NCBI GenBank assembly: GCA_963713615.1
Contig: CAVQMM010000001.1
Span: 1,664,001 to 1,728,000, forward strand
Reading direction: 5' to 3'
DNA: 64,000 bases
Source: an uncultured Chlamydiae bacterium
GTDB lineage: Bacteria; Chlamydiota; Chlamydiia; Chlamydiales; JAJFMA01
The stretch's first letter is position 1, and each line of letters begins with the position of its first letter. The notes beneath the pieces are model-generated. The model saw only the letters and a list, made by a program, of their open reading frames with translations. It did no database searches and had not been told where the DNA came from. Positions 7,487 to 61,523 of the stretch are shown here, one piece after another. The position numbers were made by a program, and so were the translations under genes.

Positions 7487-8110
7487 GTGCCCCTCATGAA
7501 GAGAATAGTTGGCTTAATCATTGTATATGCTCTTCTTTTATTCGCACCTAGGGCAGCAATAGCAACAGATGCCCCACCAATTGATGGCCAAACCCTTCTA
7601 GCCAAGGGAGGGCACCATGGTGGACATCATCACCATGGCCACCACCATCATCATCATCACGGCCACCATCACCATGGACATCACCACCACCATGGACACC
7701 ATCACCACCACGGACACCACCATCATCATGGGGATCATCACGATGGCTGGGACCACCATGGTGACGGCTGGGACCATCATGGTTCGTATAATGGTGTAGG
7801 TGTTTACCCTCCAGGTGAAGCGTATTATAGAACTGTACAGGGGGTATTACCCACCTTCTCATTGAGGGCAAGCACGCCTCAAGTATACGTGGGAGAGCCT
7901 GTTTCCATATCTCTCCCCCACACGACGGGTACGCCACCTTATACGGTGTTTTGGCGGACAAATGACAGCACGCAATGGACAAAAAGCGGCACTAATTTCA
8001 ATGTCAAGGCCACTCAACCTGGCGATATGAAGGTCCATGTTGTGGTCCAGGATGCCAATGGAAAGTTTTCACGTCCTCAGACTACAAACATTAAGGTTCA
8101 AGGACGATAG
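7487..8110 (+). CDS. Secreted His-rich protein with C-terminal Ig/PKD-like beta domain
   Basis: Signal peptide (..PRAAIA), long (H)nG tract, then VGEPVSISL..GTPPYTVFW..VVVQDANG. Confidence 0.75.
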   Translation: MPLMKRIVGLIIVYALLLFAPRAAIATDAPPIDGQTLLAKGGHHGGHHHHGHHHHHHHGHHHHGHHHHHGHHHHHGHHHHHGDHHDGWDHHGDGWDHHGSYNGVGVYPPGEAYYRTVQGVLPTFSLRASTPQVYVGEPVSISLPHTTGTPPYTVFWRTNDSTQWTKSGTNFNVKATQPGDMKVHVVVQDANGKFSRPQTTNIKVQGR

Positions 8111-13645: not shown

Positions 13646-13984
13646 CCTTTTTTAGACTAAAGGACATAAAGAGGTAATTGCGGAAGTATTTGGGCTCTCA
13701 TGGATCGGTTCTTTGAAAAAAATCACTTTTTTTTGTGAGAAGGCGATTCTGGAGAGCTTAAGTGGTATGGCACTATCCAGTCTGGAAAGACAGGCTTTTC
13801 TCCCTTCCCAGGCCCGAAGGGTCGATATTGCAACAGGCCATGGCATCGCCACATAGGCCTCAACCTAACAGGTCTTTTGAGCTTATATCTCAATGACTTA
13901 GGACTTCACAATCGTATCTCGGCGCGCAGCGCTTTGGAGTGCGGTCGCTTGCGACGTAAGCGTCAATTGAGGCCATCTGGCGAT

Positions 13985-15529
13985 TTATTCGGCAGTGGGG
14001 GCTGATGAGGTGGATGAGGCCTTTGCTTGTCGCCTGGCGGCAGCCCAAGCGTCGGGCAGAAGCTCGTGAAGTTTTTGAGAATTATGGGCTGGCAGGCGCC
14101 TCATCACATCCTCTAGGTATTCGTGGGGGTTGACTCCTATCGCGCGGCAGGTCTGTACCAGGCTTAGCAGTACGGCGGAAGCTTCCCCACCCTCCTCGCT
14201 TCCAATAAACATCCAGTTCTTGCGGCCAATAGCTAGAGGGCGTATCGCTCGCTCCGCTACATTGTTGTCGAGACGCGCAAATGCATGTTGGGTGTAGTTT
14301 TTCAGATGGGGAATTAAGCTGCAATAATAGCCTAGAGCCTCCCTTAGATTCGATTTGGGAAGAGCCTTGCCATTAACCAGCCGGTCCTTGATGCGTGCAG
14401 TCAGCTCATCTATTATTGGAGCTTCTTTCTCTTGTCTTATCCGCAGACGTTCCTCTGGAGAACGTTCCCAAGCAACTCTCTCTAACATAAATAGATATTT
14501 TATCTTGCGCAGTACCCAGCTAACAAATTTTTTATCGCCACCTACAGCGTCGAAAAACTTGCGCCGAATGTGACTCCAGCATGGACACCAAGTGAATTGC
14601 TTCTTATTAGCCAGTGCTTCATAGGCTCCATATTTATCCGAATGGACAACACCTTTATATCCAGCTAGTATTTCCACAGCATGCTTGTGGCAGCGGTCCG
14701 TGCGAAAATGATAGACTCGATAAGGCGGATTTTTTTCCTGCCCTCCAACGATCACCCACATAAAAGCCTGGTGCACCTTTCCCTTACCAGGGACAAGCAT
14801 GTCCACAGGAGATTCGTCCACAAAAACATTGTTGCTGCTGAGCACGCGAGCAATCATTTCTTCATATAGCGCCTTTAAGGCATATCCACAGCGCATTACC
14901 CACTTGCAAAGTATTTGTCGGCTGATGAGAATGCCCTCGCGAGCTAAGATTTCCGATTGACGAAATAAAGGAAGGTGATCGGCGAATTTTTTCACGATCA
15001 CACTGGCTAAAAGACTCTCATCGGCTTGACAGCGAGGAAAAATGCTATCTGGTAAATCTGCGATAAAAACGCCCTCTTCACTATGTGCTCTACATGCATA
15101 CTTGGGACGTACTAGCTCCTTGACGTAGTAGCTACCTGGCGTATGCGCTATTTTGTGAGTGACTTCTTCGCCAATTTTGACGAGGGCTTCACCCGTTGTA
15201 GGGCAAACTTTTTGATCCTCTGGCAAATCTAAAATACAGCGTTGAACGGGAATATTGTCTGGAAGCGTAATTTTATCTTTGCCATTGCGCCCCTGCTTAA
15301 CCCGTCGATGAGCAGGCACATTTATTGTCTCTTTTTGCTCTTCGGAACCAAGATTTTCGAAACCTTCCAGGTAGAGTTGTTGACCGCCATCGTCGACTAC
15401 TTTTTCCGAACGTTTCCCAAAAATCTGACGCCTAAACCATTCAAGCTGCTCCTTGAGAAAGCTATTCTCATTTCGCAGGGAATAAATTTCCGATTGAAGC
15501 TGTTCTAGTGATAGTGTTGAGGTTTCCAT
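13985..15529 (-). CDS. tnpC: IS66 DDE transposase
   Basis: FGKRSEK, zinc finger CPTTG..RPKYAC, KFADHLPLFRQ, VDES, HSDKY, CWSHIRRKF, DNNVAERAIRPLAIGRKNW. Confidence 0.97.
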   Translation of the reverse strand: METSTLSLEQLQSEIYSLRNENSFLKEQLEWFRRQIFGKRSEKVVDDGGQQLYLEGFENLGSEEQKETINVPAHRRVKQGRNGKDKITLPDNIPVQRCILDLPEDQKVCPTTGEALVKIGEEVTHKIAHTPGSYYVKELVRPKYACRAHSEEGVFIADLPDSIFPRCQADESLLASVIVKKFADHLPLFRQSEILAREGILISRQILCKWVMRCGYALKALYEEMIARVLSSNNVFVDESPVDMLVPGKGKVHQAFMWVIVGGQEKNPPYRVYHFRTDRCHKHAVEILAGYKGVVHSDKYGAYEALANKKQFTWCPCWSHIRRKFFDAVGGDKKFVSWVLRKIKYLFMLERVAWERSPEERLRIRQEKEAPIIDELTARIKDRLVNGKALPKSNLREALGYYCSLIPHLKNYTQHAFARLDNNVAERAIRPLAIGRKNWMFIGSEEGGEASAVLLSLVQTCRAIGVNPHEYLEDVMRRLPAHNSQKLHELLPDAWAAARRQAKASSTSSAPTAE

Positions 15530-15611
15530 ATGCTCTAAATCATATCACAGACCCCCTCTATTATCAAGTATTTTATCTAATAAAATGCACATTGTTTTTA
15601 GGATTTTAGGC

Positions 15612-16193
15612 TCAATGACTACTCTCCAACAACATTAGAAATTCTCGACGATCGATAGCGGAATCTGGAATGCTTCCATTGCGAAAACTTCCTTTTTCAA
15701 GTCGCTTGTACCAGACGGCATGACCATTACCATCCCAGTAAAAGACCTTCACTAGATTTCTACGACGATTTAAAAAAACGAAGTAGGCCCCGCAGGTAAA
15801 TTCGCCCGAGAACGAACTGTCAACAAGATTGCTCAAGCACTCAAATCCCTTTCGCATATCGATCGGCTCTTGATAGAGAAAGACACCCTTGTTTTTCTGA
15901 TATGACGACCTCAGAGTTTTGCTCGCAGACTTTAGGGTTAGATAGACGCTCTTCTGATCAAGCGAAAGCTTGAGCTCGGGCAGGGTAATGTCTATCCAAC
16001 CCGTCGAGGAAATGTGGTCGGGCGGGCTAACTTTAAAGCGTTGGTACCAGTACAAGAGCTGCTGGTAGCTTATATTGTTCTCTAGGCACCACCTGCGGCC
16101 ACTCTGACCGCTCGCCATCCATTGGTCTATGCGTCGAGCCCACTCAGAACGCTTCCTTTTGAAATCCATTAGTATCTCCATGGTTAGGGTCAT
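15612..16193 (-). CDS. IS66 accessory protein, TnpA-TnpB fusion
   Basis: N-terminal TnpA-type HTH (W..SGQSGRRWC....ISY..L.YW) fused in frame to IS66 TnpB (IDMRKGF, FVFLNRRR..VK.FYWDGNG..KRLEKG). Confidence 0.88.
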   Translation of the reverse strand: MTLTMEILMDFKRKRSEWARRIDQWMASGQSGRRWCLENNISYQQLLYWYQRFKVSPPDHISSTGWIDITLPELKLSLDQKSVYLTLKSASKTLRSSYQKNKGVFLYQEPIDMRKGFECLSNLVDSSFSGEFTCGAYFVFLNRRRNLVKVFYWDGNGHAVWYKRLEKGSFRNGSIPDSAIDRREFLMLLESSH

Positions 16194-16250
16194 GGAGAAA
16201 ACTTAGAACCTCGCGGAATTACGAAAAAGGTGGCTTCAATTGACGCTTAC

Positions 16251-16401
16251 CTTGCGACCGCTTTTCGTTCCTTGGGACGGCAATGCTAAACGGCATTGTA
16301 TGGATTCGTCGAAGGCTGCATGTACTAACTATTTTACCCTTAGGGAATTATAGTAATGCCGTTGCACACGACCGTCGCAAGGAACCCAAAGCGGTCGCAA
16401 G
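16251..16401. repeat. Inner arms and core of the interrupted REP doublet
   Basis: Homologous to 61278-61428, with the core in the opposite orientation. Confidence 0.9.
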
Positions 16402-16458
16402 GTAAGCGTCAATTGAAGCCACCTTTTTCGTAATTCCGCGAGGTTCTAAGTTTTCTCC

Positions 16459-17040
16459 ATGACCCTAACCATGGAGATACTAATGGATTTCAAAAGGAAG
16501 CGTTCTGAGTGGGCTCGACGCATAGACCAATGGATGGCGAGCGGTCAGAGTGGCCGCAGGTGGTGCCTAGAGAACAATATAAGCTACCAGCAGCTCTTGT
16601 ACTGGTACCAACGCTTTAAAGTTAGCCCGCCCGACCACATTTCCTCGACGGGTTGGATAGACATTACCCTGCCCGAGCTCAAGCTTTCGCTTGATCAGAA
16701 GAGCGTCTATCTAACCCTAAAGTCTGCGAGCAAAACTCTGAGGTCGTCATATCAGAAAAACAAGGGTGTCTTTCTCTATCAAGAGCCGATCGATATGCGA
16801 AAGGGATTTGAGTGCTTGAGCAATCTTGTTGACAGTTCGTTCTCGGGCGAATTTACCTGCGGGGCCTACTTCGTTTTTTTAAATCGTCGTAGAAATCTAG
16901 TGAAGGTCTTTTACTGGGATGGTAATGGTCATGCCGTCTGGTACAAGCGACTTGAAAAAGGAAGTTTTCGCAATGGAAGCATTCCAGATTCCGCTATCGA
17001 TCGTCGAGAATTTCTAATGTTGTTGGAGAGTAGTCATTGA
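16459..17040 (+). CDS. IS66 accessory protein, TnpA-TnpB fusion
   Basis: Identical translation to 15612-16193. Confidence 0.88.
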   Translation: MTLTMEILMDFKRKRSEWARRIDQWMASGQSGRRWCLENNISYQQLLYWYQRFKVSPPDHISSTGWIDITLPELKLSLDQKSVYLTLKSASKTLRSSYQKNKGVFLYQEPIDMRKGFECLSNLVDSSFSGEFTCGAYFVFLNRRRNLVKVFYWDGNGHAVWYKRLEKGSFRNGSIPDSAIDRREFLMLLESSH

Positions 17041-17122
17041 GCCTAAAATCCTAAAAACAATGTGCATTTTATTAGATAAAATACTTGATAATAGAGGGGG
17101 TCTGTGATATGATTTAGAGCAT

Positions 17123-18667
17123 ATGGAAACCTCAACACTATCACTAGAACAGCTTCAATCGGAAATTTATTCCCTGCGAAATGAGAATAGCTTTCTCAAG
17201 GAGCAGCTTGAATGGTTTAGGCGTCAGATTTTTGGGAAACGTTCGGAAAAAGTAGTCGACGATGGCGGTCAACAACTCTACCTGGAAGGTTTCGAAAATC
17301 TTGGTTCCGAAGAGCAAAAAGAGACAATAAATGTGCCTGCTCATCGACGGGTTAAGCAGGGGCGCAATGGCAAAGATAAAATTACGCTTCCAGACAATAT
17401 TCCCGTTCAACGCTGTATTTTAGATTTGCCAGAGGATCAAAAAGTTTGCCCTACAACGGGTGAAGCCCTCGTCAAAATTGGCGAAGAAGTCACTCACAAA
17501 ATAGCGCATACGCCAGGTAGCTACTACGTCAAGGAGCTAGTACGTCCCAAGTATGCATGTAGAGCACATAGTGAAGAGGGCGTTTTTATCGCAGATTTAC
17601 CAGATAGCATTTTTCCTCGCTGTCAAGCCGATGAGAGTCTTTTAGCCAGTGTGATCGTGAAAAAATTCGCCGATCACCTTCCTTTATTTCGTCAATCGGA
17701 AATCTTAGCTCGCGAGGGCATTCTCATCAGCCGACAAATACTTTGCAAGTGGGTAATGCGCTGTGGATATGCCTTAAAGGCGCTATATGAAGAAATGATT
17801 GCTCGCGTGCTCAGCAGCAACAATGTTTTTGTGGACGAATCTCCTGTGGACATGCTTGTCCCTGGTAAGGGAAAGGTGCACCAGGCTTTTATGTGGGTGA
17901 TCGTTGGAGGGCAGGAAAAAAATCCGCCTTATCGAGTCTATCATTTTCGCACGGACCGCTGCCACAAGCATGCTGTGGAAATACTAGCTGGATATAAAGG
18001 TGTTGTCCATTCGGATAAATATGGAGCCTATGAAGCACTGGCTAATAAGAAGCAATTCACTTGGTGTCCATGCTGGAGTCACATTCGGCGCAAGTTTTTC
18101 GACGCTGTAGGTGGCGATAAAAAATTTGTTAGCTGGGTACTGCGCAAGATAAAATATCTATTTATGTTAGAGAGAGTTGCTTGGGAACGTTCTCCAGAGG
18201 AACGTCTGCGGATAAGACAAGAGAAAGAAGCTCCAATAATAGATGAGCTGACTGCACGCATCAAGGACCGGCTGGTTAATGGCAAGGCTCTTCCCAAATC
18301 GAATCTAAGGGAGGCTCTAGGCTATTATTGCAGCTTAATTCCCCATCTGAAAAACTACACCCAACATGCATTTGCGCGTCTCGACAACAATGTAGCGGAG
18401 CGAGCGATACGCCCTCTAGCTATTGGCCGCAAGAACTGGATGTTTATTGGAAGCGAGGAGGGTGGGGAAGCTTCCGCCGTACTGCTAAGCCTGGTACAGA
18501 CCTGCCGCGCGATAGGAGTCAACCCCCACGAATACCTAGAGGATGTGATGAGGCGCCTGCCAGCCCATAATTCTCAAAAACTTCACGAGCTTCTGCCCGA
18601 CGCTTGGGCTGCCGCCAGGCGACAAGCAAAGGCCTCATCCACCTCATCAGCCCCCACTGCCGAATAA
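17123..18667 (+). CDS. tnpC: IS66 DDE transposase
   Basis: Identical translation to 13985-15529. Confidence 0.97.
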   Translation: METSTLSLEQLQSEIYSLRNENSFLKEQLEWFRRQIFGKRSEKVVDDGGQQLYLEGFENLGSEEQKETINVPAHRRVKQGRNGKDKITLPDNIPVQRCILDLPEDQKVCPTTGEALVKIGEEVTHKIAHTPGSYYVKELVRPKYACRAHSEEGVFIADLPDSIFPRCQADESLLASVIVKKFADHLPLFRQSEILAREGILISRQILCKWVMRCGYALKALYEEMIARVLSSNNVFVDESPVDMLVPGKGKVHQAFMWVIVGGQEKNPPYRVYHFRTDRCHKHAVEILAGYKGVVHSDKYGAYEALANKKQFTWCPCWSHIRRKFFDAVGGDKKFVSWVLRKIKYLFMLERVAWERSPEERLRIRQEKEAPIIDELTARIKDRLVNGKALPKSNLREALGYYCSLIPHLKNYTQHAFARLDNNVAERAIRPLAIGRKNWMFIGSEEGGEASAVLLSLVQTCRAIGVNPHEYLEDVMRRLPAHNSQKLHELLPDAWAAARRQAKASSTSSAPTAE

Positions 18668-19188
18668 ATCGCCAGATGGCCTCAATTGACGCTTACGTCG
18701 CAAGCGACCGCACTCCAAAGCGCTGCGCGCCGAGATACGATTGTTAGGCTTAGGTTGAGGCCTATGTGGCATCGCCATGGTATATGCCAGGAAGGGATTT
18801 CGCAGTCTGAAGGACTGCTACAAGACGCCAGTTTACAAACACCATTTATGCATGCGCTTTATGGCAGCCCTACAGGCTGCTAAAACCGTTTTGGCATATA
18901 CCATGGCGATGCCATGGCCTGTTGCAATATCGACCCTTCGGGCCTGGGAAGGGAATGACTCTCTCTTCACCGGCATCCGATTTTCAGGAAATTGACTTCG
19001 GAAAATCGGACTTCTGCAATTACCTCTAAAGGACTTAGGAAGCACACTCTACAAGTCCTTTATGTCTTTTATGTCCCTTTGGTCCTTTAGTCCATCCGTG
19101 ACCCTGCGCCTTTGCGTTAAAAAGAGCTACACGAACCGCTCACCAATATGGTATCAATGAATAAACATAGATACCTCCTGGAGTCGCT

Positions 19189-53719: not shown

Positions 53720-53997
53720 TGGTTCTTGGGAAGAATTGGGGGCGCATTGGAATCACAATCGTCACTCGGCGCTTTGGAGTGCGGTCGCTCGCGACCGCTT
53801 TGGATTTAGGCGAATCTACTGCGGCACACAGCTTTCCGTTAAACCGTCCAGCCCTCTTATATACCCCTGAAGAAGAAAAGTAAAGATTCGTACCGTACCT
53901 AGTTCGCTCAAATCCAAAGCGGTCGCGAGCGACCGCACTCCAAAGCGCCGAGTGACGATTGTGATTCCAATGCGCCCCCAATTCTTCCCAAGAACCA
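53720..53997. mobile_element. REP doublet (REPIN-like) with 88-bp inverted arms
   Basis: Arms 53720-53807 and 53910-53997 contain ggagtgcggtcgctcgcgaccgcttt; unrelated ~100-bp core. Confidence 0.88.
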
Positions 53998-61204: not shown

Positions 61205-61523
61205 CCTATGTGGCGCGTCATTCCATGACTGCTCCTCACAATCGTTGCTCGGCGCGCAGCGCTTTGGAGTGCGGTCGCTTGCGACCGCTTTTCGTTCCTT
61301 ACGACGACCATGTAAAACGGTATCACTATCATTCGCTAAGGGTAAAATAGTTAGCACATGCCGCCTTCACCGAATCCGTACAACGCCGTTTAGCATTACC
61401 GTCGCAAGGAACCCAAAGCGGTCGCAAGCGACCGCACTCCAAAGCGCTTCGCGCCGAGATACGATTGTGAGTCAGGAAAAAGATATGTGCAACACCATGC
61501 ATGGAATGACTGCTCCACATAGG
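61205..61523. mobile_element. Intact (IS-free) REP doublet at 61235-61471 nested in a CCTATGTGG..CCACATAGG inverted pair
   Basis: Arms nearly identical to 13908-13955 and 18697-18744; both CTTGCGAC target sites are unoccupied. Confidence 0.88.

Follow-up and report, generated by a model that had tools for sequence, protein, structure and literature searches.

Insertion sequences (ISs) of the IS66 family possess terminal inverted repeats that begin with GTAA and show little target specificity. As far as the available parts of the cited papers go, they are multi-gene elements producing 8-bp target duplications (PMC6778807, PMC3281130), and three IS66 copies are described with three different duplications (PMC6778807). 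Elements linked to repetitive extragenic palindromic (REP) sequences span the IS3, IS110, IS4, IS256 and IS5 families (Tobes and Pareja 2006, PMC1525189, in the part of its text available). REP targeting is known for IS3, IS4 and IS110, and the target choice and accessory proteins of IS66, a large family, are poorly understood. Here we describe an IS66 element of an uncultured Chlamydiae bacterium which is found at one and the same base of a REP in nearly all of its copies. The analysis covers a 64-kb stretch of DNA (contig CAVQMM010000001.1, positions 1,664,001 to 1,728,000; referred to below as the window), in which two copies stand as an inverted pair, together with the parent genome (3.97 Mb, 3 contigs).

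The element shares features with several described systems, which are compared here on the available portions of the respective papers. ISRm22 of Sinorhizobium meliloti (IS4 family, PMC1525189) is likewise of the DDE type, has terminal inverted repeats and duplicates its target; it occupies a fixed REP position (9 of 9 copies in REPs, at one position), and in both cases hybrid copies without a matching duplication occur. In contrast to ISRm22, which makes a 6-bp duplication at the palindrome axis, our element belongs to IS66, makes an 8-bp duplication centred 2 bases off the axis and encodes a fused accessory protein. IS1397, ISKpn1 and ISPsy8 (IS3 family, PMC1525189) also enter a fixed point of REP palindromes or of bacterial interspersed mosaic elements (BIMEs) by DDE chemistry, but have the OrfA/OrfB organisation and represent a different family and different hosts; the 3-bp duplication of ISPsy8 at the hairpin axis is a further difference (PMC1525189). 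Single-base precision in REPs is shared with the IS110-family elements IS621, ISPa11, ISPpu9, ISPpu10 and ISRm19 (PMC1525189, PMC11187229, PMC11208160, PMC12288879). These are RNA-guided DEDD recombinases, whereas the present element has inverted ends, 8-bp duplications and no guide match. With canonical IS66 and IS679 (PMC6778807, PMC3281130) it has in common the TnpA, TnpB and TnpC protein families, the ends starting with GTAA and the 8-bp duplications; unlike in those elements, with their tnpA-tnpB-tnpC arrangement and scattered related copies, TnpA and TnpB form one protein and one repeat base is targeted. The targeted repeat resembles the systems of REP doublets forming hairpins (REPINs) and REP-associated tyrosine transposases (RAYTs; PMC6006769, PMC3733652) in its short palindromes, four-base foot and facing doublets around a RAYT gene, but the foot is GGAG, a word that occurs 0 times in the available text of these two papers. 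"IS66" occurs 0 times in the available text of PMC1525189 and PMC3733652, that of PMC6006769, bioRxiv 10.1101/527788 and PMC13548323 contains nothing on IS66 targets, and a literature search, which did not extend to the main IS66 papers, revealed no REP-targeting IS66.

The genome contains 18 full copies of the element, which are 99.7–100% identical; the element appears to have multiplied recently. Their target is a palindrome with a GGAG foot, present at 386 sites (up to 2 mismatches) and forming 173 facing doublets, with arms of class A (97), B (91) and C (175). Sixteen of the 18 copies are flanked by a clean 8-bp duplication at one base of this REP (three in A arms, nine in B arms and four in C arms). 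Cleanly duplicated flanks occur in 17 copies, and with 386 REP sites in 3.93 Mb the probability that 16 of these fall at a single REP base is about 1e-63 if the insertions are independent. The fixed position that characterizes REP targeting is found in these 16 copies and at both ends of a hybrid copy (G000:C1:2277796-2280089 in this genome), the left end of which abuts the target base in arm B and the right end that in arm A. The hybrid lies without a duplication between an inner arm B and an inner arm A, resulting in a tandem repeat of the 143-bp spacer, an arrangement compatible with recombination of two directly oriented insertions, one in an arm A and the other in an arm B. The stretch downstream of the hybrid copy resembles 5S rRNA, as judged by eye. 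The remaining copy is located inside a different palindromic doublet family; its site is more similar to the REP target than random sites are at all six window sizes tried (P 0.002–0.014). Type 1 association as defined in the accessible part of PMC1525189 comprises elements with 100% of their copies in REPs; here it is 17 of 18, one being in another repeat.

The 16 clean copies represent eight separate classes of arm, allele and orientation (both arm-B alleles hold both orientations), so that the targeting result survives collapsing to these classes. By context, 14 of the 16 occupied arms have an empty repeat as their nearest relative; one of these 14 is equally close to an occupied arm. The other two arms are nearest to each other, with the IS in opposite orientations and of different alleles. 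It is very probable that the REP targeting is real and driven by transposition, and the element, judged by its insertion sites, appears to work like the known REP-targeting insertion sequences. The sequence-only reading of the window had proposed a target-specific IS66, which agrees with the tabulated flanks of all 18 copies (16 clean and one hybrid at the same REP base). Two further proposals did not hold. Orientation-specific insertion was rejected, as six copies are oriented one way relative to the REP and ten the other (p=0.45). Avoidance of CTCGCGAC arms, i.e. those with a CTCG loop as at position 53720, was also rejected: 4 of the 16 insertions fall in such arms. Occupancy is 12 of 188 A/B arms vs 4 of 175 C arms (p=0.07), which amounts to a 2–3-fold lean at most (p 0.07–0.13).

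A sister IS66 in the same genome provides a control for this behaviour. It is 66% identical at the nucleotide level, has the same first 12 terminal bases and separate tnpA and tnpB genes, and its five paired copies have five different duplications, 0 of them in this REP. Mimicry of the IS end by the REP (AAGCG is common to both) was rejected, since the sister element is scattered with the same first 12 terminal bases. Selection for a safe haven was rejected as the sole cause because it cannot give one base and because these REPs do not attract other multi-copy elements: among the 39 cases from five other IS-size multi-copy repeat classes (7–9 members), only 2 have an end close to a REP site. 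From other genomes 63 related IS66 loci were collected, 31 of which have a clean 7- or 8-bp duplication, the rest being unpaired or without duplication. No target is common to the 31 clean sites, whose identity does not exceed 17 of about 30 bases, and one of them (L122) is in a REP; a general IS66 target consensus, being only weak among the related loci, was dropped as an explanation. Genome G354, which is among these sources, has scattered IS66 copies and 29 loose matches to the GGAG palindrome. A single-base-specific IS66 next to a scattered sister is a natural pair for finding the protein that picks the target and the roles of TnpA and TnpB. One copy of the sister element is inserted into another of its own copies (G000:C1:2883809-2889659 in this genome), and a further copy sits within a different multi-copy IS at 1751221.

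The target is symmetric around the duplication and reads CG^NTNGCNAN^CG on either strand; the two staggered cuts would each fall after 5'-CG. Pairs of bases at distances 3 and 6 from the duplication centre are complementary in 17/17 sites, and those at distances 1 and 5 in 16/17. We consider it fairly probable that the transposition complex reads this short symmetric sequence in ordinary double-stranded DNA of the REP, and recognition perhaps extends a few bases further towards the GGAG foot (GTCG). Such a site could be bound in both directions by a DDE complex with two-fold symmetry, and the symmetry of the site would account for the free orientation of insertion. The mirror position of the palindrome is one base off the motif, namely a loop base, and is used in 0 of 16 insertions (p=3e-5); the T of the REP loop would decide which of the two mirror positions is cut. 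A symmetric site together with an unused mirror position would favour readout of the duplex sequence over guidance by a hairpin or by RNA. In three occupied arms with an extra base in the 5' stem the insertion register is still fixed to the loop, and a REP variant with a broken stem pair, present in two copies in the genome, is occupied in one of them. As for the guidance by sequence or hairpin that had been suggested from the window, specificity for one base of the REP stands, while the hairpin is disfavoured by the unused mirror position and the occupied stem-breaking variant. REPs supply 380 of the 454 perfect motifs in the genome, all of them between genes or in repeats, and because of this the RAYT-associated REP would act as a plentiful and probably harmless landing pad; one mobile element would then be using the repeats of another. 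Of the 74 perfect motifs outside REPs, 60 are within long reading frames, and purging would remove insertions there. A short motif and the purging of insertions in genes would together be enough to yield the REP pattern. A compact integrase reading a 12–16-bp site without RNA could serve as a tool.

Several observations speak against duplex readout. The 74 perfect motifs outside REPs are all empty, whereas from the motif alone 16% of the insertions would be expected there (P about 0.06). The motif was derived from near-identical repeats, which provide few independent observations, and its positions were chosen post hoc. The eighteenth site matches 6 of 8 motif bases but also lies in a hairpin-forming repeat, so that recognition of structure would fit it too. 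An extra base that bulges out keeps the register in a folded hairpin as well, and the test with such arms excludes only measurement along the duplex from the GGAG foot. TnpC has no added domain. Finally, the IS alleles are mosaic across the copies, perhaps by conversion or through assembly phasing, which weakens the arguments for independence based on alleles but leaves those based on orientation intact. Some of these points suit the alternative that the REP hairpin or cruciform, or a RAYT or host protein bound there, attracts the complex and the local sequence only fixes the cut. Both the placement of the eighteenth copy in another palindromic doublet family and the empty motifs outside REPs would be expected then; a cognate RAYT with three REPs on each side is present in the genome, and in other Chlamydiota (L122, the G020 remnant and G228) IS66 ends are found at the GGAG foot of related REPs. 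This attraction to structure or to a bound protein is nevertheless rather unlikely in our estimation: it leaves the mirror site used in 0 of 16 cases and the occupied stem-breaking variant unaccounted for, the IS carries no RAYT-like gene, and, judging by the position of the duplication, the two cuts in a cruciform would fall on separate hairpins.

Duplex readout can also be weighed against two explanations of another kind. One or a few chance insertions might have been multiplied along with the REP that holds them, through copying driven by the RAYT or through gene conversion between nearly identical repeats. The doublets are indeed very similar (28 exact empty copies), and mosaic IS alleles could be produced in this way. 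Such a history is very improbable, since eight classes of arm, allele and orientation share the same base, the closest context relatives are mostly empty, and C-type arms have little flank in common with A/B arms. The single-base precision, on the other hand, is reminiscent of IS621 and ISPpu9 (PMC1525189, as far as its available text goes) and would be natural for an element encoding an RNA or DNA guide complementary to the REP, as in the IS110 family. Here the longest match between the IS and its target is 8–9 bases, the same as for shuffled targets (8 bases in 152 and 9 bases in 75 of 300), the non-coding stretches of the IS are only 57, 82 and 29 bases long, and there is no Rfam match up to E=1. 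Moreover, the DEDD recombinase and matching guide that define IS110/IS1111 are replaced here by an IS66 DDE transposase with 8-bp duplications. A guide is very improbable.

The label REP is justified for the target repeat because a gene that passes the RAYT model (L006, 196 aa; NF047646, 83.7 bits with the cut-off at 80) is flanked by three GGAG REPs per side, all facing it. As expected of REPs and REPINs, it is a high-copy short palindrome with a four-base foot and facing doublets; the foot is GGAG rather than GTAG. The A/B doublet folds as one long hairpin (z=-17.5). The exact REP was not found in six genomes of the same family, but many genomes across the phylum hold plenty of looser GGAG palindromes. 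The genome has six Y1 transposase-like genes (L001-L006). At least three of them, L002, L003 and L006, have a palindromic repeat family of their own on their flanks, and these families form nested mosaics, for example at window positions 13700-19050.

The element is a member of the IS66 family outside the canonical three-gene group. Its TnpC matches PF03050 (281 bits) and NF033517 (356 bits), in both cases above the cut-off. The terminal inverted repeats are 24 bp long, agree with each other in 21 positions and start with GTAA, as do ends of related IS66 loci, and 17 of the 18 genome copies have the 8-bp duplication expected of the family. TnpA and TnpB are joined in a single frame in 18 of 18 copies, where canonical IS66 has three separate frames; the 193-aa product passes both models, NF047593 with 56 bits against a cut-off of 28 and NF033819 with 83 bits against one of 50. 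In the related IS66 loci inspected tnpA and tnpB are in separate frames. Among the best 120 homologues of the fused protein, P0002 (203 aa) is 64% identical over the whole length including the junction, and P0003 is a shorter form of TnpA-TnpB with 142 aa. The homology of the 203-aa protein across the junction means that the fusion is old and no fresh frameshift. A plasmid search for the fusion gave best places with less than 36% identity, annotated as separate genes. In a tree of 28 TnpC proteins, restricted to those with a long intact frame, the element and L122 are not separated inside one weakly supported group of 10. Alignment of the same 28 proteins ruled out an extra targeting domain, as TnpC has none compared with its 27 relatives.

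No solved structure matched TnpC or the fused protein by sequence, and a Foldseek search with the fused protein gave no match at E 0.001 or better. In the structural model of the 193-aa protein the N-terminus, made of three helices, is predicted with confidence and the TnpB domain with moderate confidence, while confidence is low for the linker between them. The best fold matches of the TnpB half (residues 102-193; predicted local distance difference test, pLDDT, about 60–84) are nucleic-acid readers of the PUA type, namely YTH, EVE, ASCH, McrB-N and VcaM4I (Z 4.5–5.8, root-mean-square deviation 3.2–4.5, about 80–100 residues). The likeness of the predicted domain to PUA-type readers, with a best Z of 5.8, is below the level that stands out and may serve as a weak lead. 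It is a matter of speculation that the fusion of a helix-turn-helix with TnpB, and not TnpC alone, tightens the choice of target.

IS66 ends at related repeats are found in other chlamydiae. Locus L122 (66-2124) is a 2043-bp IS66 with a TnpC 67% identical to ours and with tnpB present but tnpA absent; it is inserted at the GGAG foot of a related REP doublet, where a clean 8-bp duplication flanks it, and its site is symmetric about the duplication. In G020 (L254:3362-3405) both ends of a 34-bp two-end IS66 remnant are at the GGAG foot. In G228 a miniature IS66-type family has 42 exact-match ends, 34 of which, by a count made by eye, are directly at the GGAG foot, and the junction search gave 10 matches with 0 in the control for that genome. 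These miniature elements number dozens and are aged (six recovered pairs have imperfect duplications with 1–6 mismatches), and it is possible that they were amplified together with their repeats. A search of 400 other genomes for the loop-position junction returned five single matches, the same as the control. One may imagine that some chlamydial IS66 elements evolved repeatedly into precise parasites of RAYT-made GGAG REPs through remodelling of accessory genes, TnpB being an exchangeable target selector. This scheme, which is unlikely as a whole, covers loop targeting and the TnpA-TnpB fusion here, foot targeting elsewhere and the lack of tnpA in L122; if TnpB really were the target-selector module of a DDE transposase, the long-unexplained TnpB of IS66 would acquire a function. 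In G236 (L255-L273) about 37 IS66-type ends of 240–270-bp miniature elements have CG-rich, partly inverted flanks; they were dropped as evidence on duplications, being nested in other repeats and aged.

In the assembled sequence the pair in the window has the structure given in Table 1. As read originally from the window, two 2295-bp copies, each with its own 8-bp duplication, occupy the same base in both arms of one REP doublet, and being exact reverse complements of each other they form a perfect 2.3-kb inverted repeat with 151 bp between the copies. The coordinates and the sequence agree with this description. Removal of both copies and of one duplication each yields a 231-bp doublet, which is found empty in the genome 28 times letter-perfect; at a threshold of 98% identity the number is 65. 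The doublet at 61235-61471, to which the original reading had referred, is a more distant member (89% identical).

The pair probably arose by two insertions, the second of which may have been a local hop. With 12–16 insertions placed randomly among the REP arms, the probability of a doubly occupied doublet is 0.25–0.34. For two copies that are inverted and identical as well, random donors give about 0.3 x 0.5 x 0.17 = 0.02–0.03, and a second copy that hopped from the first gives about 0.15. Since inverted and identical copies are less expected than double occupancy itself, an origin in one step has to be considered: insertion into a folded-back doublet in which arms A and B are paired, with gap repair leaving an inverted copy in each arm, or conversion of one arm by the other. 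Two identical inverted copies at matching bases are just what it predicts, and the doublet does fold as one long hairpin. On the other hand, 10 of the 11 occupied A/B doublets have only one occupied arm, one-step insertion cannot give the direct orientation of the arm-B and arm-A insertions seen in the hybrid copy, and a local hop lifts the chance of independent events as given above. This one-step origin is accordingly a possible but lesser candidate, and it is here that the arm-to-arm gene conversion suggested from the window retains a place; the shared position does not need it, as the element is specific for one REP base. An assembly artefact, such as a fold-back read or the merging of two strain alleles, is an improbable source of the second copy. 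A perfect 2.3-kb inverted repeat invites such a suspicion, and two other copies have single-base deletions typical of long-read assemblies; but the outer flanks and inner arms are normal differing A and B sequences with the spacer intact, removing the copies gives a sequence present 28 times, and a short-read contig, joined from two loci, contains the identical IS, each end of which forms a junction with a REP. An artefact at this place would leave the other 16 copies unaffected. Whatever the origin of the pair, REP-targeted insertion creates many substrates for recombination, of which the hybrid copy and the 2.3-kb inverted repeat are examples.

Table 1. Positions in the window of the IS66 pair, its target doublet and related features.
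Feature	Position	Strand	Details
Enclosing repeat mosaic	13801..18954	.	Mosaic of other repeats around the pair; 51-bp inverted repeat at 13801-13851 and 18904-18954
Outer REP arm A	13908..13955	+	GGAG foot (13936-13939), 5' stem, first duplication CTTGCGAC (13948-13955)
IS66 copy 1	13956..16250	-	2295 bp; terminal inverted repeats start GTAAGCGTCAATTGA
tnpC of copy 1	13985..15529	-	DDE transposase, 514 aa, same as the protein of copy 2
tnpA-tnpB fusion of copy 1	15612..16193	-	193 aa
Centre between the copies	16251..16401	.	151 bp: second arm A duplication CTTGCGAC (16251-16258), inner arm A, spacer, inner arm B, first arm B duplication GTCGCAAG (16394-16401)
IS66 copy 2	16402..18696	+	2295 bp; sequence equal to copy 1
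tnpA-tnpB fusion of copy 2	16459..17040	+	193 aa; TnpA NF047593 at residues 14-74 (helix-turn-helix), TnpB NF033819/PF05717 at residues 104-190
tnpC of copy 2	17123..18667	+	IS66 DDE transposase, 514 aa
Outer REP arm B	18697..18744	-	Second duplication GTCGCAAG (18697-18704), stem, GGAG foot (18713-18716, minus strand)
Empty C-type doublet	53720..53997	.	CTCG loop; this class has four occupied arms elsewhere in the genome
Empty A/B-type REP doublet	61235..61471	.	89% identical to the reconstituted target

The repeat mosaic enclosing the pair is flanked by an AAA ATPase gene and a thioesterase gene. Elsewhere in the window, a reading frame with a long histidine/glycine-rich repeat (repeat family D9) is located at 7487-8110, and at 32114-59524 there are several families of paralogous genes in tandem (repeat families D1-D8 and D10-D13).

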